DNA of 63,334 bases, counting the filler, from Candidatus Lindowbacteria bacterium RIFCSPLOWO2_12_FULL_62_27 (lineage in GTDB: Bacteria > Lindowbacteria > 2-12-FULL-62-27): NCBI GenBank assembly GCA_001784175.1. It is 4 parts of 4 records of this genome, joined end to end, with 100 filler letters (N's around TTAATTAATTAA, not from the genome) between each part and the next. Parts side by side here need not be neighbours in the genome. Positions count along the whole stretch, not along the records: positions 19,144 to 50,255 come from MFPR01000010.1; 3 more parts are not named here. One strand, given 5' to 3'. Made by a program: the position numbers and the translations under genes. Shown here piece by piece: positions 1 to 42,465 of this stretch (its first letter is position 1; every line of letters starts with the position of its first letter). Below the pieces are notes generated by a model, which ran no database searches, had not been told where the DNA came from, and worked only from the letters and a program-made list of their open reading frames with translations.

Positions 1-461
1 ACCCCCGCGAACGGCGTGGCCGCCTTCGTGTCCCACGTTCCACTTGATATGGAATACGTGAACATGCGGTTCGTCGCATTGTTGATCATGACGTAGAGCG
101 TGTCGCCCGATCCGGTATACACCATCGCGCCGCCCTCGTCGACGGCGTACGGGGTGCTCGCCATCGCCGTCCATGAGTTGCCGCTCATGGAATAGGCGTA
201 GAACCAGGGGCTGGAATTGCCGGCAACCGCATAGATGGTGTCGCCCGATCCCGGATACGCGAGCGATCCGCCGTTGGCCACGGTGACGGGAAGGCCGGCC
301 CGAGTCGTCCACGTATCTGTCGCGGCCCAGGCCGGAGCCGGGAAAGTGAGAACGCAGTAATGCAACAATGCGGCAATACCGGCCAATCGCAACATCCTGT
401 TGCGACCGGGACGGAAACCCCCACCCGAACAAAGATTCAGGATCCTGTTGACCATCGACAT
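1..461 (-). CDS. Secreted kelch-repeat (beta-propeller) protein, 3' truncated by the window edge
   Basis: Manual translation, not in the ORF track: ...MLRLAGIAALLHYCVLTFPAPAWAATDTWTTRAGLP..GGSLAYPGSGDTIYAVAG...SGNSWTAMASTP..GGAMVYTGSGDTLYV...SGTWDTKA. Shows a signal peptide and kelch GG/Y/W spacing. Start is 461 (GGAGG upstream) or 395. Confidence 0.75.
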   Translation of the reverse strand, partial: MSMVNRILNLCSGGGFRPGRNRMLRLAGIAALLHYCVLTFPAPAWAATDTWTTRAGLPVTVANGGSLAYPGSGDTIYAVAGNSSPWFYAYSMSGNSWTAMASTPYAVDEGGAMVYTGSGDTLYVMINNATNRMFTYSISSGTWDTKAATPFAG

Positions 462-517
462 CTTTGAATTCCCTCCACCAACCCTGCCGCCCCCGGGGAC
501 CCTCCCCGCACAGGCCA

Positions 518-621
518 ATTGTCGCCCGCGGCCGGAGAAAATCAATCCAAGAAAAATACGTATTTTCGGAGTTAAACTCGCCTTTTAAGGCGAGTTTGGG
601 GGTCTTCATCGGAATCCATCG
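518..621 (-). promoter_or_regulatory. Duplicated promoter/operator block, copy 1 (upstream of the kelch gene)
   Basis: Minus-strand TTGATT-N16-GACAAT; palindromes AAAATACGTATTTT and AAACTCGCCTT-TT-AAGGCGAGTTT (574-597); similar to 5342-5443. Confidence 0.6.
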
Positions 622-625
622 GTCG

Positions 626-689
626 GCCTCGGTGTCAGGTTGACACATTTACACATTCGTCCCGGATTTGGCCGGTCGAAACAGCGCCG
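626..689 (+). repeat. Single arm of the GGTGTCAGGTTGACACATTTACACATT palindromic element, copy 1
   Basis: Near-identical to 1797-1861; the reverse complement of its first ~34 bp occurs at ~39809-39842. Confidence 0.9.
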
Positions 690-719
690 GCCCCGTCGTC
701 CCGATGCCGACGTTGCCGG
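684..719 (-). repeat. GNVGIGT-coding stub 1 (GNVGIGTTGPA)
   Basis: Identical to 1910-1945; begins ~14 bp after the aspartyl protease stop codon. Confidence 0.85.
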
Positions 720-732
720 ATTTGGATGTCGA

Positions 733-1095
733 CTATACGGCGGGTAGACTGGGGAGTGCAACTAACTTTCGGTTTACAGGATCGACCATCAGCCCGAAAG
801 CTTCCAGGGCATGAGCGCCGAGAAGAACCGGGGAATCCTCGTCACCGAAAACGGCGATGCAGTGCCGATATTCACCGTTAATGTGAATCAGGACGTCGCA
901 ACAATCGCGTTCGATCACCTCGCCCGTCGCAATCTTGAAGGGACGGTGAAATTCCGCTTTGACGCCCTCGGCCTTCAAGAGCGAGGCGGGAATCCAGGAA
1001 TAAAACGCGCCCGTATCCACGAGCGCGTCGAGCCGCCGTTTCTTGGCCGGCGTTTGAGGATTGGCAAACCAGATTTCAGATGTGAATGCTCCCAT
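733..1095 (-). CDS. Clan AA (retropepsin-like) aspartyl protease
   Basis: ALVDTGA catalytic motif and LLGAHALE..GLMVDP C-terminal motif; 120 aa. Confidence 0.85.
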   Translation of the reverse strand: MGAFTSEIWFANPQTPAKKRRLDALVDTGAFYSWIPASLLKAEGVKAEFHRPFKIATGEVIERDCCDVLIHINGEYRHCIAVFGDEDSPVLLGAHALEAFGLMVDPVNRKLVALPSLPAV

Positions 1096-1209
1096 GCCGA
1101 CATTCTATCGAAGGTTGTCTCCTTGGTCAACGGTTGCGCCATGCCCGGTCGGCGGCGGAGTCCCATTTGAAAATGCACGCATCTCAGGATACACTCTGGA
1201 ATATAGATC

Positions 1210-1464
1210 ATGCCTACAGTCTTGTTTGTTCATGGGTGGAGATTTTACTTTTACGCAAATGAGAGAAACGAGCCGATCCATGTCCATTGCCGGAAGGGGG
1301 ACAAAGAGTGCAAATACTGGCTGTTGACGGATGTGTTCGGTATTGCGGAGGCGTATTCGTACAATTTGTCACCGGCCGACAAACGTCAGGTGAGAAAAAT
1401 CATCTTCGCGCATTTTGAATACATTGAAAGCGAATGGAATAATTTTAAAGGAGGCAGGCGATGA
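1210..1464 (+). CDS. DUF4160 family protein (TA pair component)
   Basis: MPTVL..GWRFYFYANE..EPIHVH signature; ATGA overlap with the next gene. Confidence 0.85.
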   Translation: MPTVLFVHGWRFYFYANERNEPIHVHCRKGDKECKYWLLTDVFGIAEAYSYNLSPADKRQVRKIIFAHFEYIESEWNNFKGGRR

Positions 1465-1712
1465 CAAAATACCATGACGTGGAAGCGGTTCGATTCAAAG
1501 GTGACACGATGCTCTTGAGGGTCGACGGCAAAAACTACAAAATAGATTTAAGGAAACATTCCGCGCGTCTGACAGGCGCGGACCCGCGCGTCAAAAAAAA
1601 TTATGCCGTTTCTCCGTCCGGTTATGGCATTCATTGGCCCGACGTTGATGAAGATCTTTCGATCGACGCCTTGATTGGTATAAACCATAAAATCCCTCAA
1701 TCCACTTTCTAA
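1461..1712 (+). CDS. DUF2442 family protein (TA pair component)
   Basis: GYGIHWPDVDEDLSIDAL signature; usual partner of DUF4160. Confidence 0.85.
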   Translation: MTKYHDVEAVRFKGDTMLLRVDGKNYKIDLRKHSARLTGADPRVKKNYAVSPSGYGIHWPDVDEDLSIDALIGINHKIPQSTF

Positions 1713-1724
1713 TTTCCGCCGCGC

Positions 1725-1785
1725 TCCTCCGCGGTGAAATGATCCGCTGACCCGCCGCCGACTTTGGACGCGCCGCCGTTGACCG
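1725..1785 (-). pseudogene. Collapsed remnant of an S74 cassette (VNGGASKVGGGS plus a 3' flank motif)
   Basis: 1752-1785 matches 7426-7459 at 33/34 bp; 1725-1739 is identical to 7027-7041; same order, with the interior missing. Confidence 0.7.
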
Positions 1786-1796
1786 AGGGCCTCGGT

Positions 1797-1861
1797 GGCC
1801 TCGGTGTCAGGTTGACACATTTACACATTCGTCCCGGATTTGGCCGGTCGAAACGGCGCCG
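1797..1861 (+). repeat. Single arm of the GGTGTCAGGTTG palindromic element, copy 2
   Basis: Near-identical to 626-689. Confidence 0.9.
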
Positions 1862-1887
1862 TACATACGGAGGCGCGGTAGACCGTT

Positions 1888-1945
1888 CAACCATTTACAT
1901 CCAACCTCCGCGCCGGCCCCGTCGTCCCGATGCCGACGTTGCCGG
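1888..1945 (-). repeat. GNVGIGT-coding stub 2 (GNVGIGTTGPARRLDVNG*)
   Basis: Minus-strand translation; 1910-1945 is identical to 684-719. Confidence 0.85.
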
Positions 1946-1968
1946 TCGGCCGTAACGACTTGTTATGT
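1944..1968 (-). other. Putative left half of an integron attC site
   Basis: Minus strand ACATAAC-AAGTCGTTACGGCCGACC overlaps the toxin TAA and resembles attC R''/L''; no right half found. Confidence 0.45.
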
Positions 1969-2221
1969 GCGCTTCTTCCAATGTGTAGGGGATCTACTGC
2001 CATGCTGAGTCACAACCTGCGTCGAATGTCGGCCACAGCGGATGCGGCCGGCCGGCCGGGAGTCTTGTCAATCTCGTAGGCATCCAGCCGCCGGTCTATC
2101 TCCGCCTTCTGCTCGTCTGTCATGGGTAACGCGCGCGCTGATCGGCCGCGATGCTGTCCCACAGATCCTCAACGAGATGAACCCGCTCGTCAATCGGAAG
2201 CTCTTTAAGTTTGGAATTCAT
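1963..2221 (-). pseudogene. Decayed addiction module: frameshifted TIGR02574-like antitoxin (2010-2221) and internally deleted ParE/RelE-like toxin (1963-2013)
   Basis: MNSKLKELPIDERVHLVEDLWDSIAADQ, then a +2 shift in a (CG)n run (~2131-2138), then LPMTDEQKAEIDRRLDAY...IRRRL*. Overlapping GTG ORF VTQHGSRSPTHWKKRT*. Promoter TTGCTC-N17-TAGAAT upstream. Confidence 0.75.
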
Positions 2222-2360
2222 GGCGCCACCTCCCACAGATGTGAGCATATTCTATCACGATGGGAGCGGCCGAGCAAGGCGAACCGTTCCTCGTACGTGA
2301 ATAATCGACACATTCGCCTTATATGACGAGTTTTCGGGCCTTCGATTGAATCTTCCGTAT

Positions 2361-2981
2361 CTACGACGCGACCGGCACGCATATCTCCGTCTTCAGATTC
2401 TCGGGCTTCGTGCGTTTCGGATTGTTCAAGTAGATTTCGTAGCCTGGCACGTCCCGAAGTTTGGCGCCGCTTGAAGGCAGCCACTGCGAGAAAATGGCGT
2501 TGTAGGTTTCGCCCAGCTTCTCGTAGGGTCCAGCATGCAGAAAGACGGCGTACTTGCCGCCCGCGATGGCCTGCACGCCGGCGTCGCCTTTGGGCTTGAC
2601 GGCCTTGTGCAGATCAACGCAGGCGTCGTAGCGGAGATTCTCCTCGGGCGTGACGTTCGGGTTGTCGTGCGGGATGCCGATGCATTCGACGCGGCGATTG
2701 AACAGAAACTTCGACCACACCGCCTTCATGAGCGCCTCCCACGCGGCCCCAGCCGCTTTGGAATACTCTCCGGTCTTTCTTACATACAACACCTGTCGTT
2801 CGGGCATGTCTCGAAATTCAGGGTTCATCGGAATGACCTCCTTGAGGATTGCAGCGAGCACCAGCCGCTGCGGCCGCGGCGCGTTCCAGACGGGCGCGCC
2901 GGACATGTTGTTGGCCTCGATGTAAGCCAGCACTCGGTTCAATCGTTCCACATGGTCCTTGACGGTAACTTCCCGCGACAT
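2361..2981 (-). CDS. GyrI-like effector-binding domain protein, apparently an AraC/GyrI regulator lacking its HTH
   Basis: GIPHDNPNVTPEENLRYDAC, GGKYAVFLHAGPYE and YEIYLNNP motifs; AraC-type N-terminal helix ERLNRVLAYIEAN with no HTH following. Confidence 0.8.
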   Translation of the reverse strand: MSREVTVKDHVERLNRVLAYIEANNMSGAPVWNAPRPQRLVLAAILKEVIPMNPEFRDMPERQVLYVRKTGEYSKAAGAAWEALMKAVWSKFLFNRRVECIGIPHDNPNVTPEENLRYDACVDLHKAVKPKGDAGVQAIAGGKYAVFLHAGPYEKLGETYNAIFSQWLPSSGAKLRDVPGYEIYLNNPKRTKPENLKTEICVPVAS

Positions 2982-3117
2982 GCCGAATGTTTATCTCCCT
3001 CCCATCGGCCCCGCTATTCCGATCTTGCTATCTTTTTTACGATCGTGTGGTCTTCCCCGAATTTGCACATGGCGTCGCAATCCCGTCTTGACGCTGTCCA
3101 CCGCGTCCCGTGATTCA

Positions 3118-4431
3118 TCATGCCCGGGGCCGGCCCATGGGCCGGACGATATACGTCGTAATGCCCTCCGCCACTCCCTTCACCTTCAGGCCCTCGCGCC
3201 GCTCGACGCTTGCGGGATCCGGCGGCGGATTCACGCGGCGAAACGACTCCTGCCCGAGCTGGATCGCATCCACGGGGCAGGTCGATTCGAGCCGCTGGGC
3301 CACGTTGACGGCCGAACCGACGCAGGTGAAGTCGCGCCGGGAGGACATGGCCCCGATGTCGCCCTGAATCACGGGGCCGGTGTTGATCCCGATGCGGATG
3401 TGAAACGCATCGGGATCGTTCTCGCGCAAGGCCGTCAACCGCGCCTGCATCCCGCATGCGGCCGCGAAGGCGGCGGTCGCGCCACAATCCTCTTCCCCTT
3501 CGAAAACGGTCATGATCGCGTCCCCGATGAACTTGTCAATCATGCCGCCGTTGCGGGTCACGATCGGCGCCATCTCCTCCAGATACCGGTTGAGCCGCCG
3601 GACGATCTCGGCCGCGGGCGTCGTCTCGGTGAGCGGCGTGAATCCGGCCACGTCCGAGAAGAGGATCGTCATCTCCCGGCTTCGGGCGGCGCCCTCGTCG
3701 CTCCCGGTCGCCCGCCGATGCGCCGCCTCCCAGGCCGACTTCGGGACGTAGTGAAGGAGTTCGCGCTTCGCCCGCATGCCTTCGACGAGACGATTGAAGA
3801 TGGCGGCGAGATCGCCGACCTCGTCCTTTGTTCGAAGTTCGACCCGCACGTCGAGATCGTCGGACTCGAGACGTTTCATGCCGAACGCGAGCGTCGCGAG
3901 CGGCACGGTGATGCCCCGCGCGACGAGAATCGAGAAGAAGACGGCGACCAGAATCGCGACCGCCCCGAGCGTGACCGCGCGGCCGATGAGACTGCGGCGC
4001 GCGGCGTGCAGGCGCGTGGCGTCGAAGGCGACCTCGATCCGGCCGATCTCGCGGGGAGTCTCCCCGGGGGACGAAACCGTGATGGGGCGGACGACGCGGT
4101 GGGCGTCGGGCGGAACGGTCCCCCACTCGCTTCCCAGATCGAGCGTTTGCCCGTCGTCGCCCAGGACCGAAATCGATCGAAGGTCCCCGTACACCCGGCC
4201 GATCTCGCGCAGGACTTCGCGCGTGTTGTCCGGATCGATCACCTCGTTGGCGAGGAGCGTCTCGAGGAGCACGGGAGAGAGCGTGGTCGCGAGCGCCTCC
4301 GCGGATTCCCGGTACCGCGTCTCGATCGCGGCGCGTTCTCTTTGATAGTTCACGAAAAGCGTGAGCGCAGTCCCCTCAAGAATTCCGACCACGAGGATGG
4401 CCGCGATCTTGTGCCAGAGCCTGATTCTCAT
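3118..4431 (-). CDS. Membrane class III adenylate cyclase (2 TM, HAMP, cyclase domain)
   Basis: FSDVAGFT, IDKFIGD, GINTGPVIQGDIG..DFTCVGSAVNVAQRLE; HAMP DEVGDLA..FNRL; start at 4431 overlaps the upstream stop. Confidence 0.9.
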   Translation of the reverse strand: MRIRLWHKIAAILVVGILEGTALTLFVNYQRERAAIETRYRESAEALATTLSPVLLETLLANEVIDPDNTREVLREIGRVYGDLRSISVLGDDGQTLDLGSEWGTVPPDAHRVVRPITVSSPGETPREIGRIEVAFDATRLHAARRSLIGRAVTLGAVAILVAVFFSILVARGITVPLATLAFGMKRLESDDLDVRVELRTKDEVGDLAAIFNRLVEGMRAKRELLHYVPKSAWEAAHRRATGSDEGAARSREMTILFSDVAGFTPLTETTPAAEIVRRLNRYLEEMAPIVTRNGGMIDKFIGDAIMTVFEGEEDCGATAAFAAACGMQARLTALRENDPDAFHIRIGINTGPVIQGDIGAMSSRRDFTCVGSAVNVAQRLESTCPVDAIQLGQESFRRVNPPPDPASVERREGLKVKGVAEGITTYIVRPMGRPRA

Positions 4432-5315
4432 TCCGGAAGCCGCCCGTGTCCCGAGAGCGTGGCCGCGACCCGGCGTACCGTTACGAACTGCGTGTCCGAG
4501 ACCGCGCCGAAAGGATGCGGCGACCCGGTGCGCGCGTCCGGGGCGAGGAGCGCGGCGCGGATGCGCTCCGCGAGGGCGGGATCGCGCGCGAGGAAGGAGC
4601 GGGAGAAGGCGACGCACCAGTTCGGAAGGAGGGGCGTTTCGGCGATGATGCGCACGCGCGCGCGTTCCGCCTCCGGGACGTGGCCGGCATACGCATGCGG
4701 GTAGGTGAACCCGGCGTCGTACCGCCCCTCCTTCAGGTGGATCAGGACGTTGGCGTGCGACCCGACGCCCGTGAATGAGGCGAAGTCATGGAACGGATCG
4801 ATGCCGGCATCGAGGCACATCGCAAGCGGATAGAGGTATCCGGAGGCGGAGTGGAGGTCCACATACGCCACACGCCGCCCGCGAAGGTCCGCAAGCGTTC
4901 GGATATCGGGAGCGGCGGCGACGACGAGACCGCAGTACGACGTCGAATCATCCTGAATCGGCCCCGCGACCGGCTCGACCCCGGCCTCCTGCCGCGCGCG
5001 GACGTAGTCGAAGGGCGCGAGGTCGACGATGTCGTACGCATTCTCGCGCACACGCGCATGGAAAACCTGAGGATCCCCCAGAACCCGGATTCGGACGCGG
5101 ACCCCGATCCGCTCTTCGAGATAGTCGGCCCGCACCGCGAGGCTTCGCGCCATGCCGCGCAGGTCGAGACTGCTCGAGGCCATGACCACCACGGGAGCGG
5201 TTTCGGCGGTGTCGCGCGATGCGCCCCCGGTCGGATTCGGCGCGATCGGGCCGGGCGACGGCCCACAGCCGATGCAGGCGGCGGCGAGGACGCAGAGGAA
5301 GAATGTTTTAGTCAT
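4428..5315 (-). CDS. Phosphate/phosphonate (PhnD-like) substrate-binding lipoprotein
   Basis: Lipoprotein-like signal; IRTLADLRGRRVAYVDLHSASGYLYP; GSHANV. Confidence 0.8.
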   Translation of the reverse strand: MTKTFFLCVLAAACIGCGPSPGPIAPNPTGGASRDTAETAPVVVMASSSLDLRGMARSLAVRADYLEERIGVRVRIRVLGDPQVFHARVRENAYDIVDLAPFDYVRARQEAGVEPVAGPIQDDSTSYCGLVVAAAPDIRTLADLRGRRVAYVDLHSASGYLYPLAMCLDAGIDPFHDFASFTGVGSHANVLIHLKEGRYDAGFTYPHAYAGHVPEAERARVRIIAETPLLPNWCVAFSRSFLARDPALAERIRAALLAPDARTGSPHPFGAVSDTQFVTVRRVAATLSGHGRLPE

Positions 5316-5341
5316 GGCACGTCACCCAACAACACCGGGCG

Positions 5342-5443
5342 ATTGTCCCCCGTGGCCGGCTGAAATCAATCCCGGAAAAAGACGTATTTTCAGAGATAAA
5401 TTCGTCTTACATGGCGAGTTTGGGGCCTTCGCCGGGACTATCG
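5342..5443 (-). promoter_or_regulatory. Duplicated promoter/operator block, copy 2 (between the binding protein and the divergent XRE gene)
   Basis: Similar to 518-621, including TTGATT-N16-GACAAT. Confidence 0.6.
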
Positions 5444-5477
5444 AAACCGTTCGAAAAGAGATAGGGTGGAACCTGCC

Positions 5478-5864
5478 ATGAAAGGCGACGGCGGTTCGGT
5501 TACGGCACGGGAGTTGAAACATCTCGGCGGGCGGCTTCGCGGCCTGCGCAAAGACATGGGCGTGACCCAGGCGGACCTCGCGCGGCGGGCCGGGATCGAT
5601 CCGCGGTACTACTCCCGCATCGAGCGGGGGCAGGTGAACGCGACGTTTCAGACGCTGATGAGGCTCACGCGGACCCTGCGCGTCTGCCCCGGTATTCTAT
5701 TTTTTCCGGCGTCGCGCATGGACGGGTCGATGGCCGCCGCCTGCGCGTGCCTCTCGCAGATGAAATCGGCCGGCCGCCGCCGGCAACTGGATCAAGTCGT
5801 CTCCTTCGCCCGGCATGTCCTGGGCGTGAGGCCCCGATTGAGAGGCGCCCGGCGTATTCCATAA
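5478..5864 (+). CDS. XRE-family HTH transcriptional regulator
   Basis: LRGLRKDMGVTQADLARRAGIDPRYYSRIERG. Confidence 0.85.
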   Translation: MKGDGGSVTARELKHLGGRLRGLRKDMGVTQADLARRAGIDPRYYSRIERGQVNATFQTLMRLTRTLRVCPGILFFPASRMDGSMAAACACLSQMKSAGRRRQLDQVVSFARHVLGVRPRLRGARRIP

Positions 5865-6058
5865 AGAAGCTCGCGGGAGATCTCTTCCATCTCGACCCTG
5901 CGGGTCACGATCGGCTCCATCTCCTCCAGATACTAATCAGTTCATCTTCGCTGCATATTTTTTATTCAACAATTCAACGCCTGGCGCCATGACCCATGAA
6001 GACCTGAATCAAAACTGGACTTTGTATCGAGAGCGTTTTTTAATGGAGGTGGCAAGGC

Positions 6059-6367
6059 ATGCCGAATAAAACGAAGACGGCATCGGGCGGCAAGGAGGGA
6101 GCGTTGTGGGAATTGCAGCGCGTCCTTTCCACGGAATTCAGCAAATATGTTCTGGCTCATCCGGAATTGGATGTACAAATACCGGACGGCGCGCAAATCG
6201 TATTTCATATGGAAGATAATCCGGAATTCAACAGGTGGGCCCGGAAAGTTGCCCATTCACAGATGGCGAAAAATCAGCCCATGATCGTGATAAAAGTAGC
6301 CGGGCTTTCTCCCGTACCTCCCTCGCGGTTGATCAACCCGCAGGTTGACTTAAGTCCCGCGACTTGA
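6059..6367 (+). CDS. DUF5647-like small protein
   Basis: LSTEFSKYVLAHPE...IPDGAQIVF..EDNPEF; GGAGG RBS. Confidence 0.65.
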   Translation: MPNKTKTASGGKEGALWELQRVLSTEFSKYVLAHPELDVQIPDGAQIVFHMEDNPEFNRWARKVAHSQMAKNQPMIVIKVAGLSPVPPSRLINPQVDLSPAT

Positions 6368-6416
6368 AAAATTATCTGTTCATGGGTGGGTCTTGAAGCC
6401 GCTCTTTCCGCGTCGA

Positions 6417-6469
6417 ATTCCCTAGAACATGTTTCTGTTGCGAAACAACTTAACAACTTACGGTCTGGC
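6417..6469 (+). repeat. 53-bp direct repeat, copy 1 (TAGAACATGTTT...AACAACTTAACAACTTACGGTCTGGC)
   Basis: 50/53 identical to 8556-8608. Confidence 0.9.
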
Positions 6470-6478
6470 CCCTGAAGC

Positions 6479-6524
6479 CCAGTTTCCCCCCCGGAGCCGT
6501 GCTCCCGATGCCGACGTTGCCGGC
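6479..6524 (-). repeat. GNVGIGT-coding stub 3 (AGNVGIGSTAPGGKL)
   Basis: Closely matches 7831-7872. Confidence 0.85.
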
Positions 6525-6581
6525 TTTCTTTAGCAGACCCGGAGGGTGGATAAGGAAGACGATCTGGAGCGTTGTTTGGGA

Positions 6582-6683
6582 TTAGTTTTTCGGCGGATCG
6601 GAAAGATACATCACAACGCCGAATAACCCAAATGCGCCGGCGCCAAGATACAGAGCCAACAGAACCACTGATGTCGCATCCAT
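6582..6683 (-). CDS. 33-aa membrane peptide
   Basis: MDATSVVLLALYLGAGAFGLFGVVMYLSDPPKN*, directly after 6686-6940. Confidence 0.45.
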   Translation of the reverse strand: MDATSVVLLALYLGAGAFGLFGVVMYLSDPPKN

Positions 6684-6685
6684 GA

Positions 6686-6940
6686 TTAAACTTTACCCCC
6701 GTTTAATTTCTTTGTCAACCAGACGGCCGCAACCATAAGCGCCAATCCAAGCGCGACACCTGCCAAGTCGAAAGATATTCTGGCTTGGTCCTTTACAAGG
6801 ATTGCATCCGCGACGCCGCCCGTCAGAGCGGCCAGTCCCAAGGTATTGATGTTTTCAATGGTACGCTCCCATTGTCTCGTCGTCAGTCTCATCGCCTCTA
6901 TATATTTCGGCAGGTCGTCGATTTGGCGTGAATCCTCCAA
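6686..6940 (-). CDS. Small hypothetical membrane protein
   Basis: 84 aa with two hydrophobic segments; start uncertain. Confidence 0.55.
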   Translation of the reverse strand: MEDSRQIDDLPKYIEAMRLTTRQWERTIENINTLGLAALTGGVADAILVKDQARISFDLAGVALGLALMVAAVWLTKKLNGGKV

Positions 6941-7055
6941 CGCCGCAGGCCGCCACTCAGTTGCGCCGTGACCTCCGCAAGTTCCGACGAGAGGGGACGT
7001 ATCGATGAATCACTCTTTCCTCTGCGTCCTCCGCGGTGAAAAATGTTTGTCTCGA

Positions 7056-7876
7056 TTATCTCGCGCCTTCTATCGCCCCCACTTTCTTCGTGAGTGCGTC
7101 GATCTGCGCCTGTTGTTCCTGAACCACCGTTTGCAATTTGTCGTTTGCCGCCTTCTGCTCCTTGACGGCGTTCAGCATAGCCCAGATGATGGGATCGTTG
7201 TCGAGCATCAGGTAGCCCTTGTTGCTGGACGAGATCGCGGCGGGAATCGCCTCCTGGACCTCCTGGGCCACAAGGCCGATATGTTCGGCGCGGTCGCGGA
7301 TGCCGGCGCCGTTTTCCTTTTTGTACCGGTATCGCACGGGATTCAGTTTCATGACCGCGTCCGTCCCGGGCGTATAAGCGCCTTCCACGTCCTTGAGCCG
7401 CCCGTCCGAAAACGTCGCCCACGATCCGCCGCCGACCTTGGACGCGCCGCCGTTGACCGTCAAGGTCGTATCCGGCGACACCGTGCCGATTCCGACGTTG
7501 CCGGAAGCCAAGATATTAACGCCATTATTCTCGTTGGGAACACCGGTGCCTGTCCCGACGACTAAGATAAGCCTGGTGTCGTTGAAGCGGATGTCAGCAC
7601 GGTTGGAGGCGGAGCCGAATCCGCCGCCAAAGATGAACCCGGAGTTGCCGTGGGGTTCGTAATCCGGATGTCCCCGCCCGTCCCACCGGTGGCGAAGTCG
7701 GCAGAACCGTTCACTGATAGGAGACTCGCGGGCGAGTCTGTCCCGACTCCGACCTTGCCGCTCTTTAATACAACCAATCGCGTATCTCCCACCGCAAGCG
7801 AATCCGAAACCAGGACACTGCCTACGACATCCAGTTTCCCCCCCGGCGCCGTGGTCCCGATGCCGAAGTTCCCCGA
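7056..7876 (-). pseudogene. Start-less, frameshifted fibre/adhesin C-terminal cassette with a peptidase S74 intramolecular chaperone
   Basis: GNFGIGT, GKVGVGT and GNVGIGT repeats; frameshift near 7652; WATFSDGRLKD, LNPVRYRYK, HIGLVAQEVQ, coiled-coil end; begins just after the DUF5615 stop. Confidence 0.8.
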
Positions 7877-7881
7877 GAGGG

Positions 7882-8217
7882 CTAAGGCCAATCGTCTCCG
7901 GTCTTATACCGGGAGAAATCCGAATCGATAAAAGTTTCCATGAACTTGGGTACGAAAATATCGGCCGTGTCTTGCTGGAGAGCCACGCGCAGAACCTTGA
8001 CGGCCGTGGAAGATGACAATTTCATTAGCCGCACAGAACGCGCAAAGCCGGCGTCTTTGGTGAAGAAAATATCGTAGGCGTGGGCTACTTCCCGATAGAG
8101 CGTCCCGTTTTTTGTGCCCTTTAAACGAAGCCGGTTGATGGATGTTGCCTCGTGTCCCGCCCGACGCAATTCGGGAACGAGAGACTCGGGAAGGTTTTCG
8201 TCGAGAAGAATTTTCAC
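7882..8217 (-). CDS. DUF5615 PIN-like toxin (VapC45-like)
   Basis: MKILLDENLP...AGHE...FTKDAGF. Confidence 0.85.
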   Translation of the reverse strand: MKILLDENLPESLVPELRRAGHEATSINRLRLKGTKNGTLYREVAHAYDIFFTKDAGFARSVRLMKLSSSTAVKVLRVALQQDTADIFVPKFMETFIDSDFSRYKTGDDWP

Positions 8218-8429
8218 ACGGAAGCCAGAGCGCGGGAACCTGCCAGCTCACGCAGAACGCCGCGAATCGACTTTGCGGTCAGGCTCGGATACTCCTTCGT
8301 GATTTTCTCGATTGACATCCCGCAGGCGATCAACTCCAGGAGAAGCGAAATCGAGATGCGCGTGTCCCTGACCCTCGGCTCCCCGCCCAAATGATCCTTG
8401 TCCGACACGATCCATTTGGCTTTTCTCAT
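8214..8429 (-). CDS. DUF433 antitoxin
   Basis: HLGGEPRVRDTRISI...GMSIEKI..EYPSLT. Confidence 0.9.
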   Translation of the reverse strand: MRKAKWIVSDKDHLGGEPRVRDTRISISLLLELIACGMSIEKITKEYPSLTAKSIRGVLRELAGSRALASV

Positions 8430-8555
8430 ATCCCAAGACTACCCCATAGCCTCCCGCCAGTCAAACGACAGCGGCCCGCCACTGAATTCTGAACCGAAAC
8501 CGGAAAGGTTCAATTTTTTTTCAACACATGAAATATCCGGGCTATATGCAATGTT

Positions 8556-8608
8556 ATTCCTTAGAACATGTTTTTGTTGCGGAACAACTTAACAACTTAC
8601 GGTCTGGC
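8556..8608 (+). repeat. 53-bp direct repeat, copy 2
   Basis: See 6417-6469. Confidence 0.9.
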
Positions 8609-8714
8609 GCCGGAAATCCCCGAGGCCGTCCAGCGTTGCCGCTGATCGCTGTTCTTCCAGCTTGCCACGCGGCCAGTGTATTGTCCGATCTGGCTGTTGA
8701 GCGACTCGATGCAG

Positions 8715-37223: not shown

Positions 37224-37628
37224 TCAGATTCGCGTGAATACCATCTTTTTCCTTCGGGCGTCGAAGAAAATGTTGAAGCGATCGAAAAAATCTGCCCGGC
37301 CGAGCAAAAACGGCGCGTCGTCACGTTCGGCGAAGAAGCATCGGACGGTCACGCCGGAGGACTTGCCGATTCGTAATTCCAGGGGAGCCAATTTCCCGGC
37401 AATGCGCCCGCCTTCGATACCGGTCACCGTCAGCGAAGTGAATTCCTCCAAATCCAATCCGGCAAATTTACCGATTCTTTGCGGTACCATGGTAAATTCA
37501 GCGCCGCTGTCCAGGATAAACTTGAACGTTCTGCGGTATTGGCCGCCCGTCAGGACGACGGACACAACAGGTCTGTATACCGTTCCGAATTTTGTTCGAA
37601 ATCGGGTAAGCGGGAATTCAATAGACAC
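37224..37628 (-). CDS. Retropepsin-like aspartyl protease
   Basis: YRPVV, FILDSGAEFT, PFLLGRADFFDRF; GTG start overlapping the upstream gene. Confidence 0.85.
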   Translation of the reverse strand: MSIEFPLTRFRTKFGTVYRPVVSVVLTGGQYRRTFKFILDSGAEFTMVPQRIGKFAGLDLEEFTSLTVTGIEGGRIAGKLAPLELRIGKSSGVTVRCFFAERDDAPFLLGRADFFDRFNIFFDARRKKMVFTRI

Positions 37629-37812
37629 AGATAACGTCCGGCCGGGACACGTGCATGATCTCAATGTCCTCGCCGGTGAGCTTCAATCGGGCGAGTTTTC
37701 GTTCAAGCGCACCGTAAGTTCTGCCCGATGCCAGAACCCTTTGGCCCTTCATCGCGACAAATTTTCCACCGTACCGCTCCTGAAATTTCAACGAAATCGT
37801 CAGGCGTTTCAT
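37618..37812 (-). CDS. DUF5678-like small protein
   Basis: ERYGGKFVAM.GQRVLASG; commonly paired with aspartyl proteases. Confidence 0.75.
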   Translation of the reverse strand: MKRLTISLKFQERYGGKFVAMKGQRVLASGRTYGALERKLARLKLTGEDIEIMHVSRPDVICVY

Positions 37813-37883
37813 AGATGAAGTATATCCAGCGATCGACCATCCGTCAATCGATGGTCCGATTTGGTGCCAGGTTGCCTCTTTTA

Positions 37884-39794
37884 GTGCGCCAAGAAAGTTC
37901 ATCGGCGCTTGTGATAGATAAACACCCGCATAGAGCTTAGCCAGCAATGCGGAACCGAGTCTTGCGCGGCGTCGGGTAACCGACGGCGTGAAGCGTAGAC
38001 AGGGAGGGCGCAGGCCGTAACGCAAGTGAATGGATTGAGCCTCGAAAAGTCAACCCTTCCCGAAAGGGAAGCAGTCGTGGAAGCCGAGTCGCTTATTTGC
38101 GCCGAAGGCAATATGAGACGACCGAAACAACTGCAAGGTCGCGTAGTTCCACCGGGGTCGAAGACAACGGCATGCGTGCCAGTGAGAGCCGATGGGAACT
38201 TGGGAGATCCCGTCCGGTCCAGAAAGAGGTAGACGAGTCCGAGGGCAAACCGGAGGGCGAGTCGAAGCCGGAAGGGAAGTCGGATCGTCCCATAGTACCG
38301 CTGAAGGGAAGTAACGCTCCCGGAGGGAAAGGGACGACAAACCAACGCGTGTATGAGGGAACCATGGGAAACCCACAGAGGTTGCCAACCATGTCACCGA
38401 AACTGGTACGCATAGCGGAGAAGGCGAAACGGGAACCGAACACGGTATTTACATCCCTGGCCCATCTGATGGACACGGAACACCTGATGGAAGCATGGGT
38501 GAGAATCCGTAAAGATGGGGCAACAGGAGTTGACGGGATGACGGCCGGAGTCTACGGGGAGAAACTGGAAGAAAATCTCCAAGCCCTGCATGAGCGCCTG
38601 AGGAAAGGATCGTACCGCGCGCCGCTGGTCCGCCGCGCCAAGATTCCGAAGGAAGATGGAAGTTTTCGGGAACTTGGGATACCTACGCTGGAGGACAAGA
38701 TTGTGCAGAAGGCGGTCGCTATGATTCTGGAAGCCATTTACGAGAAGGATTTCAGGGAGTGTTCGTATGGTTTCCGTCCGGGTCATTCGGCGCACGAGGC
38801 ATTGGAGGTTCTCCGGAAAGCGATTTTGTTCGGGAAAGTGAACTGGGTACTGGATGCGGACATCAGCCGGTTTTTCGATGAGATGGATCATCGAAAGCTG
38901 ATGGAAATCGTCCGGCGTCGGGTCAATGATGGGCGAATTGTGCGGCTCATCGGCAAATGGCTCAAGGCTGTAGTGATGACCGAAGCGGGGATACAACCCC
39001 GCGAGCGGGGGACTCCGCAGGGTGGTGTGATCAGCCCGATACTGGCCAACATTTTCCTGCATCATGTTCTGGATGAATGGATGGAGGACGTTGTCTACGG
39101 TCGAATGTCCGGCGAGTGCCGATACATCCGATACGCGGATGATTTTCTCATCCTATTTCAGAAAGAAGCTGATGCAAGGAGGGTGCTGGCGGTGTTGCCC
39201 AAGCGACTTGGGAAATTCGGGTTGCGATTAAACGAAGGGAAGACAAAGCTCATCCGGTTTGGGCGATTTGCTAAGGAGAAAGAGTCTCGACAGAATCGAA
39301 AGCCGGAAACATTTGACTTCCTCGGATTCACTCACTACTGCGGAATGTCGGGTCATGGAAAGTTTCAGGTCATGCGTCAGACGCAACGAAAGCGATTCCA
39401 GAAAGCCGTCACGCGAGTTGTGGAATGGGTTAAATCAAACCGGTATCTGCCCCGGAAAGAACAGCATCGCCATCTCTGTAGGGTTCTGCGTGGACACTAT
39501 CAGTACTACGGTGTCACGGGAAACCTGCGGAGAATTAAGGGGTTCTTTTACAGGGTGACACGGGCGTGGTGTCAGTGGCTGAGGCGAAGAAGCCAACGCC
39601 ACACGCTTTCGTGGGAACGCTTCACGGAATACCTGAAACGATATCCATTACCGATCCCCTGCCTTCCCAAATCCTACGTTCATGCCGTCGCCAATCCATG
39701 AGTTGGGTTGAAGAGCCTCGTGCGGGAAACCTGCATGCGGGGTTCTGTGAGGGGCCGGCGGGGTCTTTAAAGTGCCCCGCCCGGTCTACTCGAC
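37884..39794 (+). mobile_element. Complete group II intron (probably bacterial class E-like, no endonuclease domain)
   Basis: 5' GTGCG at 37884; domain V GAGCCTCGTGCGGGAAACCTGCATGCGGGGTTC (~39713-39745); domain VI ending CTACTCGAC at 39794; RT ORF inside. Confidence 0.9.
38391..39701 (+). CDS. ltrA: Group II intron reverse transcriptase/maturase
   Basis: FTSLAH, GVDG, LGIPTLEDKIVQ, SYGFRPG, GTPQGGVISPILAN, RYADDF, FDFLGFTH, GHYQYYG; no HNH; start could be 38364. Confidence 0.95.
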   Translation: MSPKLVRIAEKAKREPNTVFTSLAHLMDTEHLMEAWVRIRKDGATGVDGMTAGVYGEKLEENLQALHERLRKGSYRAPLVRRAKIPKEDGSFRELGIPTLEDKIVQKAVAMILEAIYEKDFRECSYGFRPGHSAHEALEVLRKAILFGKVNWVLDADISRFFDEMDHRKLMEIVRRRVNDGRIVRLIGKWLKAVVMTEAGIQPRERGTPQGGVISPILANIFLHHVLDEWMEDVVYGRMSGECRYIRYADDFLILFQKEADARRVLAVLPKRLGKFGLRLNEGKTKLIRFGRFAKEKESRQNRKPETFDFLGFTHYCGMSGHGKFQVMRQTQRKRFQKAVTRVVEWVKSNRYLPRKEQHRHLCRVLRGHYQYYGVTGNLRRIKGFFYRVTRAWCQWLRRRSQRHTLSWERFTEYLKRYPLPIPCLPKSYVHAVANP

Positions 39795-39842
39795 TACAAA
39801 TACTGAATCGGGACAAATGTGTAAATGTGTCAACCTGACACC
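39795..39842 (-). repeat. Right part of the palindromic element split by the intron (left part at 37863-37883)
   Basis: Reverse complement reads GGTGTCAGGTTGACACATTTACACATTTGTCCCG; the left flank reads GGTGCCAGGTTGCCTCTTTTA. Confidence 0.85.
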
Positions 39843-39927
39843 ATGACCCATGACCCACCATGACCAAGCCGAAGACGGGGCGGGAGAAAACCGCCATGAC
39901 ACAGGTCTGGCTGACGGCGTCCGCATA

Positions 39928-40000
39928 GCGGAAGCAGGGGTCCAGTCGCCGTATCCGAGCGGGGGACAGCCTCTGGATTCCCGCTTTCGCGGGAATGACG
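39928..40000. repeat. CGTC-type REP doublet (one copy degenerate)
   Basis: GCGGAAGCAGGGGTCCAG...CTGGATTCCCGCTTTCGCGGGAATGACG. Confidence 0.7.
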
Positions 40001-40062
40001 AGCGGGACAAGTCAACCATTATCTGCTCCCCTTAGCATTGTGGAATTATTGAGTCAGGCATT

Positions 40063-40314: not shown

Positions 40315-42465
40315 ATGTGGACTTATTATACGGCCGTGGTGCTGGTGGGGATCGGTTTTTTGACCATTGGACTTTTGTGGACCCTGGCGGCGCTGGGGGC
40401 GGGTCTTGGGTTGTTTTTCGGATATCGAAATCGTGACGCCGTAATTGCCAAACTCCGGCAGTCGCCGGAGGACATCGGAAAATTTCTCAGACAGACATTC
40501 CGGCGCGCTCCCGCAGCGCGCGCGCGGACCGTCGAGCAGGCGGACCGGCGGTGGCTGTTTCCGGAAACGCGGATGCAGGACATCCGCAAGGAGGGCTTTG
40601 AGGCGCTGAGCGAAAGTTTTCTGCTGCTCAAGCGCCTTGCGCCGTACCATTCCGCCGCGCTGTTCGAATACGACACCGACACGCGGCTGGCCTATCCCCG
40701 CATCTATAGCACGTCGTCGGACACGTTCCGCCGGGACGCGCTCGTGTCGGTGAGCGACGGCGTGGTCGGATACTGCCTGTCGTCCGGCAAGACCGTACAC
40801 TACGCGGACTTCAAGGGCGACGCGCGCCTTCTCGGGTACTACACCGGCTCGGAGGAAATCCGGTCGGTGCTCGTGGTCCCGCTGGACCGCGCGCAGCGGC
40901 GGCTGGGCGCGCTGGCGCTCGACGCGAAATCTCCGGACGCGTTCGCGGCCCGGATGGAGGAAATCACGCATCTGGCCAACGTCCTCGCGGAACTTCTGGT
41001 CCGCGTTCAGCGCGAGGAGACGCTGCTCATGCGCCTGGAGGAGGACCGGACGCTGAAGGCGATGACCGAGCGGATGGCGAAGGCAGGGGTGTCGATCGAA
41101 GACGTGGCCGACAGTCTCTGCAAACTGGCGAAGGAGGTCTTCCCGGCCGACCGCGTGACGTTTGTGGTCTTCGACGATCCCGCGTCGACGCCGCTGGGAA
41201 GCGTCGCGGCCGCCGGTGGTTCCGTTACGGATTCGTCGATCGTTCGGTTTCGCAGCCTCAAGATGCTGGACCGGTACGTGGAGCTGGTGAGCCGGACGCA
41301 GAAGGCGATCCGCCTGGACGACCTCTGGGAGAACGGGCTCATGTCCCTGGCGACCGGCCAGACCGGCCTGACGACGCGGTCGATTTTGGCCGCGCCGTTT
41401 GTGTTTGAGTCGCACGTCGTGGGCGTCGTGCTGGTGGAGGCGGACCGCCGCCGGGCCTTCACGACCTTTCACGAAACCGCGATCGGAGAACTCGTGCAGC
41501 ACGCCGCGACGGCCGTCGCGCGGGCCATCGAGTATGGGCGGATGGAAAAAACCTGCGCGATCGCCGATGTCGTCCCGGCGGCGGCGGACTGCATCTTCAG
41601 CGAGCCGACCCTCGCGCCCGTGCTCGATCTTCTGAAAAGCCGGTTCGGCGTGGCCGGCAAGGTATACGAAGTGGTCGCCGCCAAGACGGGCGAAGTGCGT
41701 CTGAGGCCGTGGGAGGACCCCGAGTCCGAGCCGGTCGACACGTCGCTCTTCCAGAAAAACGCGATCGAGACCCGGTCCGCGCTCCTGCGCACGGACGGCA
41801 AAGTCTCGCCGGCGAAGGAAGCGTCCGGAGAGATTCCGGCCGGCAGCGACCTGGTGTTTCCGCTGAGCGCGGGCCAGAATGCCCAGTGGCCGCTCGGTCT
41901 TTTGTGCGTGTCGGTGAAATCGCCGCTGCGCCCGGAGAGCGTCCTGATTCTGGACCGGATCCGGTCGCTGATCCAGATCCGGCTGGTCCTGGAACGGCGA
42001 GAACGGCAGTTCGGTTTTCTGAAAGTGCGCGACCCGCTGACCGGCGTCTATCACACGGCGTCCTTCGAGAAAAAACTGGAGGATCGAATCCGCCGGGCCA
42101 AACCGACGGGGGAGCGGTTTCATTTCCTTCTCGTGCAACCCGGCCGGATGCCGGCCGTCAAGCGGACGCACGGATTTGCGGAATTCGCGCGCCGGTACGC
42201 GTCGCTCTGTTCCGAGATCGAGCGACTGTGCGGCCCGCACGCGACCGTGGGCCGGGTGGGCCCGGACCATGTCGGCGTGATCTGGGAGGAAGGCGCGGAG
42301 GCGCTTCGCCCGGTGCGCCAGCAGATCGAGAAGCTGTCCGAACCGCTGGGGTTCGAGGTGCAGACTGGCGTGTCGGAGTTTCCGTCGGCGGACGGCGTGT
42401 GGGCGCTGATCGAAACGGCAGCGCAGGCGTCGCTGCCCGCCCCCGCTGAGGCCTCGACCGCCTGA
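40315..42465 (+). CDS. Membrane multi-GAF protein with a degenerate GGDEF-like domain
   Basis: N-terminal TM; GAF motifs (RSVLVVPL, SILAAPF); RDPLTGVY...GRVGPDHV in place of GGDEF. Confidence 0.7.
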   Translation: MWTYYTAVVLVGIGFLTIGLLWTLAALGAGLGLFFGYRNRDAVIAKLRQSPEDIGKFLRQTFRRAPAARARTVEQADRRWLFPETRMQDIRKEGFEALSESFLLLKRLAPYHSAALFEYDTDTRLAYPRIYSTSSDTFRRDALVSVSDGVVGYCLSSGKTVHYADFKGDARLLGYYTGSEEIRSVLVVPLDRAQRRLGALALDAKSPDAFAARMEEITHLANVLAELLVRVQREETLLMRLEEDRTLKAMTERMAKAGVSIEDVADSLCKLAKEVFPADRVTFVVFDDPASTPLGSVAAAGGSVTDSSIVRFRSLKMLDRYVELVSRTQKAIRLDDLWENGLMSLATGQTGLTTRSILAAPFVFESHVVGVVLVEADRRRAFTTFHETAIGELVQHAATAVARAIEYGRMEKTCAIADVVPAAADCIFSEPTLAPVLDLLKSRFGVAGKVYEVVAAKTGEVRLRPWEDPESEPVDTSLFQKNAIETRSALLRTDGKVSPAKEASGEIPAGSDLVFPLSAGQNAQWPLGLLCVSVKSPLRPESVLILDRIRSLIQIRLVLERRERQFGFLKVRDPLTGVYHTASFEKKLEDRIRRAKPTGERFHFLLVQPGRMPAVKRTHGFAEFARRYASLCSEIERLCGPHATVGRVGPDHVGVIWEEGAEALRPVRQQIEKLSEPLGFEVQTGVSEFPSADGVWALIETAAQASLPAPAEASTA

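Follow-up and report, generated by a model that had tools for sequence, protein, structure and literature searches.

A group II intron in one arm of a REPIN-like doublet of Candidatus Lindowbacteria and its probable homing into near-cognate repeats

The stretch of DNA analysed here (the window; 63,334 nucleotides, filler included) consists of four joined parts of the genome assembly of Candidatus Lindowbacteria bacterium RIFCSPLOWO2_12_FULL_62_27 (GCA_001784175.1). It carries a group II intron lodged in one arm of a short palindrome whose sequence recurs elsewhere in the genome. The contig with the intron spans window positions 20288-50255, and positions 1-8714 are a separate record of the same assembly. 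The intron is complete and apparently still active, 1911 nt long and on the plus strand (37884-39794), and interrupts no gene, lying between a retropepsin-like gene (37224-37664, minus strand) and a divergent GAF-GGDEF gene (40315-42465, plus strand). Its extent was derived from Rfam models and from a 94% match to an intron at L001:3524-5430 (L-numbers denote metagenome or genome contig loci; G001, used below, is a related groundwater genome of 2.9 Mb, incomplete). RF02005 (group-II-D1D4-6) matched 37918-38167 with 132.8 bits (gathering score 49) over its full 225 model positions, and RF00029 (domains V and VI) matched the 3′ end with 47.1 bits. The intron begins with GTGCG and ends with ...CTACTCGAC, closing in AC, and the bulged A of domain VI is at 39788, seven nucleotides before the 3′ end; thus the 5′ GUGYG, domain V, domain VI with its bulged A and the 3′ AY of a group II intron are all present. 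The initial annotation had placed a group II intron at exactly these positions, and the two Rfam matches bear it out, as does the junction, which is set by two intron-free sites (L023 and L016) that are continuous across the insertion point.

Domain IV contains an open reading frame (ORF) with an in-frame ATG at 38364 and a stop codon at 39699-39701, encoding an intact reverse transcriptase/maturase, the intron-encoded protein (IEP), of 445 amino acids with a YADD motif. The IEP matched TIGR04416 of NCBIfam with 376.7 bits (cut-off 300). In Pfam it matched RVT_1 alone (E 7.5e-42), with no HNH match, and this search of the 445-residue protein found no endonuclease (D/En) domain. In the alignment to RF00029 the loop of domain V reads GAAAC, five nucleotides rather than a GNRA tetraloop. 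A 5-nt domain V loop is described as a peculiarity of the IIE and IIF lineages (Nagy 2013, PMC3753933). An RF02005-type intron with IIE/IIF-like features is compatible with these data, and the earlier label ‘class E-like' fits as far as it goes, the loop and the missing endonuclease domain not separating E from F. The ORF class modelled by RF02005 is not stated in the papers citing that family. The window IEP is 46% identical to that of a single-copy Sinorhizobium meliloti plasmid intron, also present, disrupted, on a GR4 plasmid; this intron may be S.me.I4, listed as class E in PMC5894124. Class C (IIC) was excluded because the intron has a clear exon-binding site 2 (EBS2; see below) and a full-size domain I, and because its best Rfam family is RF02005.

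Removal of the intron joins a left arm, GGTGCCAGGTTGCCTCTTTTA, a 27-nt spacer and an inverted 21-nt right arm into 69 nt. The left arm agrees with the reverse complement of the right arm at 17 of 21 positions, so that the 69-bp imperfect palindrome described in the initial annotation is indeed rebuilt. Folded as DNA, the joined 69 nt reach -9.7 kcal/mol (z = -2.3), and 15 of 500 shuffled sequences fold equally well; the palindrome is real, yet modest. The recurrence of the right arm on another contig was likewise confirmed: it is exact over 34 nt at 631-664 and 1803-1836, in the separate record 1-8714, making three matches where none was expected from 100 shuffles. The 21-nt consensus of the repeat family is GGTGTCAGGTTGACACATTTA, which the right arm matches exactly and which holds the small hairpin GTGTCA-GGT-TGACAC (6-bp stem, 3-nt loop), and this core hairpin forms in every copy that was folded. 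These short, extragenic, imperfect palindromes, dispersed in several copies, have the character of repetitive extragenic palindromes (REPs), without the high copy number or the GTAG/CGTC tag of REPs; there are five to seven copies per genome sample, the assemblies being incomplete, and the 5′ end is GGTG.

With three degenerate positions permitted in the 21-nt motif, a scan of metagenome contigs gave six stretches. Four of these come from the window's own assembly beyond the part shown or duplicate the window, L020 represents this intron locus in a further assembly record, and L018 and L023 are adjacent parts of one contig. There are four REP copies in the window, at least seven in the assembly, and five exact copies of the 13-nt REP core in G001. 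Elsewhere, a search of 60 genomes including G001 gave one match, with two mismatches, in one other genome, and viral contigs contained no match to the motif and no relative of the IEP. The copies fall into a subtype a, in which the 21 nt are followed by CACATTYGTCCCGGATT (631, 1803, the reverse copy at 39842, L018 and L019), and a subtype b, in which they are followed by YRCAAATRC (the window and L001 intron sites, L023 and L016); L017, the partner copy in L001 and a partial copy on G001:C22 belong to neither. Doublets occur in the window (27-nt spacer) and in L001 (186-nt spacer), while five copies of subtype a or other, together with two subtype-b copies without a close partner, are singlets. 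Overall, 8 of 12 family members have no inverted partner within 200 nt. The intron target is therefore the 21-nt REP with its 3′ flank, and not the palindrome as such.

The family can be tied to a transposase gene. On one contig, two inverted REPs, L018:9761-9781 (plus) and L023:714-734 (minus), are separated by 1058 bp, measured end to end, with a single ORF of 330 amino acids between them. Its N-terminal 231 amino acids, the part compared, matched PF01797 (Y1_Tnp) with 32.6 bits (cut-off 23) and NF047646 (REP-associated tyrosine transposase, RAYT) with E 4e-21 and 75.4 bits, just below the cut-off of 80 for this partial sequence; HFH and Y motifs can be recognised. What defines REP/RAYT systems is a tyrosine transposase gene with inverted REPs on its two sides. 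Both the RAYT-bracketing inverted REPs and the small core hairpin lead us to read the 69-bp palindrome as a REPIN-like doublet and the REP family as part of a REP/RAYT system, a REPIN being two inverted REPs with a short spacer (Bertels and Rainey, PMC3116915, PMC3337134). In this sense the original label ‘REP/MITE-like' was apt. G001 has ten Y1_Tnp matches, none a clear orthologue (at most 37% identity to the REP-flanked RAYT), and of the eight loci compared none is flanked by the full REP motif, one having a 15-nt partial match.

Two other identities for the element were considered. A miniature inverted-repeat transposable element (MITE) with terminal inverted repeats is flanked by a target-site duplication, and none was found at the outer edges of the arms in the window or in L001. 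The attC reading was rejected. An attC site is an imperfect palindrome with the cores RYYYAAC...GTTRRRY in that order; here the cores GTTGACA...TGTCAAC are in the opposite order and misfit RRRY, and the solo copies form no long hairpin.

A search of genome contigs with the window IEP revealed a second insertion, in a groundwater metagenome-assembled genome (MAG; L001), whose IEP is 96% identical. As can be seen from BLAST comparison of the two loci, similarity is confined to window positions 37864-39813, that is, the intron and about 20 nt on each side (94%). In L001 the 5′ exon ends with AGTGCCAGGTTGACACATTTA and the 3′ exon begins with CGCAAATACCGA, the same position in the same motif, and an inverted REP follows at 5617-5637, 186 nt past the intron. 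Alignment of the exon flanks of this close homologue, which had been suggested as a check, thus finds the same REP position occupied and an inverted partner present. That one intron lineage uses exactly the same position in two unrelated loci of two genomes points to site-specific homing.

Several observations bear on whether the two insertions share a history. Genes common to both genomes have an identity of 64-82%, whereas that of the intron is 94%. The G001 stretch syntenic with the intron region of the window (contig C143) has no intron; the sole intron copy of G001 is on contig C77, in a non-orthologous place, and among the three genomes of the phylum that were searched G001 is the only carrier. 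The flanks from -21 to +19 agree at 29 of 40 positions between the window and L001, and beyond +19 the doublet interiors are unrelated. The two IEP genes differ by 50 synonymous and 20 non-synonymous changes (dN/dS 0.11), and, because of this ratio, the reverse transcriptase is taken to have been under purifying selection since the copies split. Taken together, the low gene identity, the intron-free synteny, the diverged flanks and the dN/dS value indicate that the window and L001 insertions were independent. Empty subtype-b sites are found at L023, where the REP lies next to the start of the RAYT gene, and at L016 (in G001). More distant relatives (L002-L007, 40-50% IEP identity) are inserted in unrelated sequence, as is expected because their exon-binding sites differ. 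Downstream of one of these introns, on a Deltaproteobacteria MAG contig, there is a pyrrolysine insertion sequence (L005:4159-4258; RF02509, mtbB type, 90.6 bits).

Domain I of five RF02005-type relatives was aligned with that of the two introns, window and L001. EBS2, GTCAACC, in a variable internal loop after GAGCCNCG, is predicted to pair with GGTTGAC at -14 to -8, where the REP hairpin has its loop and 3′ stem. All seven pairs form in L001, as they do in 10 of 11 family sites, and 6/7 in the window, with a duplex energy of -11.5 kcal/mol (L001) or -6.8 kcal/mol (window). By eye, L002, L003, L004 and L007 also have a complement to their 5′ exon in the same loop. EBS1 is a 7-nt slot in the hairpin preceding GAAGGC, and in all five relatives it complements -7 to -1 with six or seven pairs. 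(The plasmid introns L061 and L062 were left out of this count, L061 having a 4-bp match shifted by one nucleotide, and the 5′ splice site and EBS1 hairpin of L062 not being placed.) The homologous slot in the window, at 38094-38100, forms only 3/7 pairs with the 5′ exon, and that of L001 4/7. The EBS1 first suggested, TGAGAG (38183-38188), has to be abandoned, as it is part of another hairpin further on (38166-38191), which the relatives conserve. Another candidate, TGAATG (38027-38032), which could pair with CATTTA, was rejected since L007 conserves the stretch but has no matching exon, and chance alone would give about one 6-mer of this kind.

The same slot complements the 3′ exon instead, at +2 to +8, with 7/7 pairs in L001 (-8.2 kcal/mol) and 6/7 in the window, L023 and L016. 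On the 5′ side, positions -6 to -1 of the REPs form a series C-A(n)-T(4-n)-A, with CTTTTA in the window and L016, CATTTA in the consensus and CAATTA in L017, and the slot is the exact complement of the next member of this series, (G)CAAATA. L017, with GCAATTA at -7 to -1, forms 6/7 EBS1 pairs in the canonical register. A second variant of the intron is present in runs X3, X4 and X6, in the same samples; over 37895-38174 it has 32 differences and 5 gaps in 280 nt, and the positions of its indels, 38093 and 38099, are precisely in the EBS1 loop.

Table 1. Positions in the window of the intron, its parts and the REP copies
Feature	Positions	Strand	Remarks
Left REP copy, subtype b	37863-37883	+	last 21 nt of 5′ exon; 4 mismatches to family consensus
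Intron-binding site 2 (IBS2)	37870-37876	+	GGTTGCC
5′ exon, -7 to -1	37877-37883	+	TCTTTTA
Group II intron	37884-39794	+	RF02005, RF00029, L001 match, empty sites
EBS2	38049-38055	+	GTCAACC, variable internal loop after GAGCCTCG
EBS1 slot, by homology	38094-38100	+	TATTTGC, within hairpin 38083-38109
Reverse transcriptase/maturase	38364-39701	+	RVT_1, TIGR04416
Domains V and VI	39711-39794	+	RF00029 alignment
Doublet spacer, 27 nt (start of 3′ exon)	39795-39821	+	39796-39802 (ACAAATA) complements EBS1 slot
Right REP copy, subtype a	39822-39842	-	exact family consensus, inverted relative to left copy
Solo REP, subtype a	625-689	+	21-nt core 631-651
Solo REP, subtype a	1797-1861	+	21-nt core 1803-1823

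We consider it likely that an endonuclease-less group II intron retrohomed into one arm of a REPIN-like doublet, and that the members of this low-copy REP/RAYT family serve it as near-cognate sites. The target would be the 21-nt REP followed by the subtype-b flank YRCAAATAC, and insertion would be guided by EBS2, by protein contacts with the conserved positions -20 to -15 and +1 to +12, and by partial EBS1 pairing (4/7). Ideal for the intron would be a REP variant that ends with GCAAATA, that is, n=3 in the series above, of which n=0, 1 and 2 were seen; the lineage is probably tuned to such a variant, which was not found, and enters the present ones as near-cognate sites. The match of EBS1 to +2 to +8 may then reflect a REP flank made up of the same CAAAT/ATTTG units. 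Since the intron has no endonuclease, its substrate is probably single-stranded DNA at replication forks, as for RmInt1/RmInt2. The initial annotation had suggested homing into a multi-copy hairpin family. Use of the same site by the 94%-identical L001 intron supports the homing; the family is of low copy number, however, and the target is not the palindrome as such. For the EBS1 mismatch itself, near-cognate homing among REP variants is our best guess.

A number of results weigh against this reading. The duplex of EBS1 with the 5′ exon has an energy of +0.5 kcal/mol in L001 and +2.4 kcal/mol in the window, compared with -2.3 to -10.9 kcal/mol in the five relatives. EBS1-IBS1 pairing is reported to be crucial, and EBS2-IBS2 pairing dispensable, for self-splicing of IIE/IIF introns (Nagy 2013, PMC3753933), and splicing and homing at the window site should therefore be poor. 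L017, the best canonical match to EBS1 and EBS2 together, is empty. GGTTGAC closely followed by GCAAATA does not occur in the window and the loci beyond the known subtype-b REPs, and a search of G001 for cognate sites gave three matches, one a known REP and two outside REPs, about the number expected by chance. Only two occupied sites are known, and occupancy tracks the CAAATAC flank, with two of four subtype-b sites occupied versus none of the eight other family members. The second variant, as reconstructed, still complements AAATAC at +4 to +9 in spite of the indels in its EBS1 loop. Finally, the occupied allele is found without differences in contigs of several runs, and in four of four runs no contig skips 37884-39794, contigs being unable to show that an intron-less allele is absent.

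Some of these points would be accounted for if the EBS1 loop paired with the 3′ exon, from +1 or +2 to +8, exposed beside the REP hairpin in single-stranded DNA, with EBS2 alone holding the 5′ exon. The pairing stretch would be the strand next to the REP hairpin or the REPIN loop, and insertion would take place just upstream of ‘IBS1'. The +2 to +8 complement is present in all four subtype-b sites (6-7 of 7 pairs) and in none of seven others (at most 4 pairs, wobbles included), and its duplex in L001 is as stable as given above. The occupied sites are two of the four that have it, the pairing persists in the second variant (three runs; reconstructed from difference tables), and each occupied site is followed by an inverted partner, at 27 or 186 nt, whereas neither empty subtype-b site has one that close. 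We nevertheless regard this pairing as unlikely. All five relatives of the same domain I architecture use the slot canonically, and a helix 3′ of the cleavage site misfits the known geometry of the group II active site. In addition, the shared CAAAT/ATTTG units make such a match likelier (rough chance estimate 0.01-0.05), the difference in occupancy is not significant (Fisher's exact p about 0.09, a hand estimate), and the flanks of the second variant could not be read. If true, pairing of EBS1 with the 3′ exon would be a mode of target recognition not described for any group II intron, and would explain why only CAAATAC-flanked REPs are occupied.

It is also conceivable, with about the same low probability, that the intron entered one REPIN only once, and that REPIN and intron were then moved as a unit, by the tyrosine transposase or by horizontal transfer, with the flanks as cargo. 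Similarity of the two loci does stop at the outer edges of the REP arms, the same REPs can evidently enclose a RAYT gene with about 1 kb of cargo, and the EBS1 mismatch would need no explanation. The flanks, however, are far more diverged (29/40) than the intron (94%), the doublet interiors differ in length (27 versus 186 nt) and are unrelated beyond +19, no target duplication is seen at the arm ends, and a dN/dS of 0.11 speaks of selection on the reverse transcriptase, which transposition at the DNA level does not impose. Less probable still, by a clear step, is a regulatory role of the motif, as a promoter with a TTGACA -35 box or an operator TGTCA-GGT-TGACA, placed face to face between divergent genes. 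The motif does hold TTGACA and a dyad, and divergent genes flank the intron, but no -10-like hexamer was seen (by eye) at a spacing of 16-18 nt in subtype a or most copies of subtype b, the copies are not fixed in position or orientation with respect to genes, and inverted copies bracket the RAYT gene; the promoter reading was rejected on these grounds.

Homing of introns into repeats is already known; what is particular here is that the host repeat is tied to a RAYT gene and that EBS1 misfits the 5′ exon. The closest parallel is RmInt2, a class D intron of S. meliloti that homes into both terminal inverted repeats of ISRm17 (PMC4615759; PMC5894124). It tolerates only four paired EBS2 residues, a relaxed pairing that is compatible with efficient homing (PMC4615759). 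Like RmInt2, the window intron has no endonuclease, and its target is the short inverted-repeat end of another mobile element, with sites in both orientations. In contrast to RmInt2, its host is a REP/REPIN of a RAYT system and not an insertion sequence, one arm subtype only is occupied, the relaxed pairing is in EBS1 and not in EBS2, and the intron is of RF02005 type with IIE/IIF features and not of class D. A group II intron inside repetitive extragenic palindromes also has a precedent in Pseudomonas putida KT2440, where two of nine copies of such an intron lie in REPs (Tobes and Pareja 2006, PMC1525189); that report gives a count without a mechanism, whereas the present case has a defined position, EBS2 pairing, empty sites and an associated RAYT.

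Introns of class C insert after terminator hairpins or into attC sites (PMC1702495). As with these, insertion here takes place next to a hairpin, 5 nt past the small stem-loop GTGTCA-GGT-TGACAC, and a single-stranded target is likely; unlike them, the window intron has an EBS2 and a full-size domain I, and the hairpin would be bound by base pairing rather than recognised as a shape. The inverted REP doublets and the REP-flanked tyrosine transposase gene resemble known REPIN/RAYT systems (PMC3116915, PMC3337134), which differ in having tens to hundreds of copies, compared with five to seven, and GTAG/CGTC in place of GGTG; here, moreover, one REPIN contains a 1.9-kb retroelement.

The locus would be a case of one selfish element nested in another, the REPs of a REP/RAYT system giving a retroelement its landing pad in an uncultured lineage from groundwater. 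Empty alleles and a second, apparently independent insertion define the site precisely, and make the notion of a ‘neutral landing pad' concrete for an endonuclease-less intron of IIE/IIF type. The combination of an EBS1/5′ exon mismatch with purifying selection on the protein may reflect either relaxed, EBS2-driven homing among repeat variants or a less conventional mode. For annotation, the 69-bp palindrome is best described as a REPIN-like element, and not as a terminator or a regulatory dyad.

Several further repeats were noted around the REP copies. Outside the REP, about 28 nt 5′ of the insertion site, there is a 7-bp hairpin GACCATC...GATGGTC (37834-37855). Tandem arrays of 6-8-nt units abut several REP copies: ATGACCC at 39843-39866, GGTCAGG at L018:9700-9760, GGAACTGA and CAACTT at L001:5455-5520 and 5568-5612, and AAATCCT/AAATCCC at L016 (minus strand) 1395-1465. 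A second, unrelated REP-like hairpin, CTGGATTCCCGCTTTCGCGGGAATGACG, lies at 39966-40035 (core 39973-40002). Its summed contig depth was 18,000-51,000 in four runs, and near-exact copies number at least 45 in G001, often in inverted pairs with about 45 nt between the two. One copy adjoins the empty REP in L016.

On the first contig of the window, a 43-nt direct repeat ending in CCCGATGCCGACGTTGCC occurs in five copies (675-717, 1901-1943, 6479-6521, 7460-7502 and 7831-7873), two of them just downstream of the solo REPs at 631 and 1803. Four small genes lie between or beside these solo REPs, at 733-1095 (minus), 1210-1464 (plus), 1461-1712 (plus) and 2361-2981 (minus). They comprise a second retropepsin-like gene, a weak paralogue of 37224-37664, a DUF4160/DUF2442 pair and a GyrI-like/Cass2 gene, types that are often found in cassette-like accessory regions.

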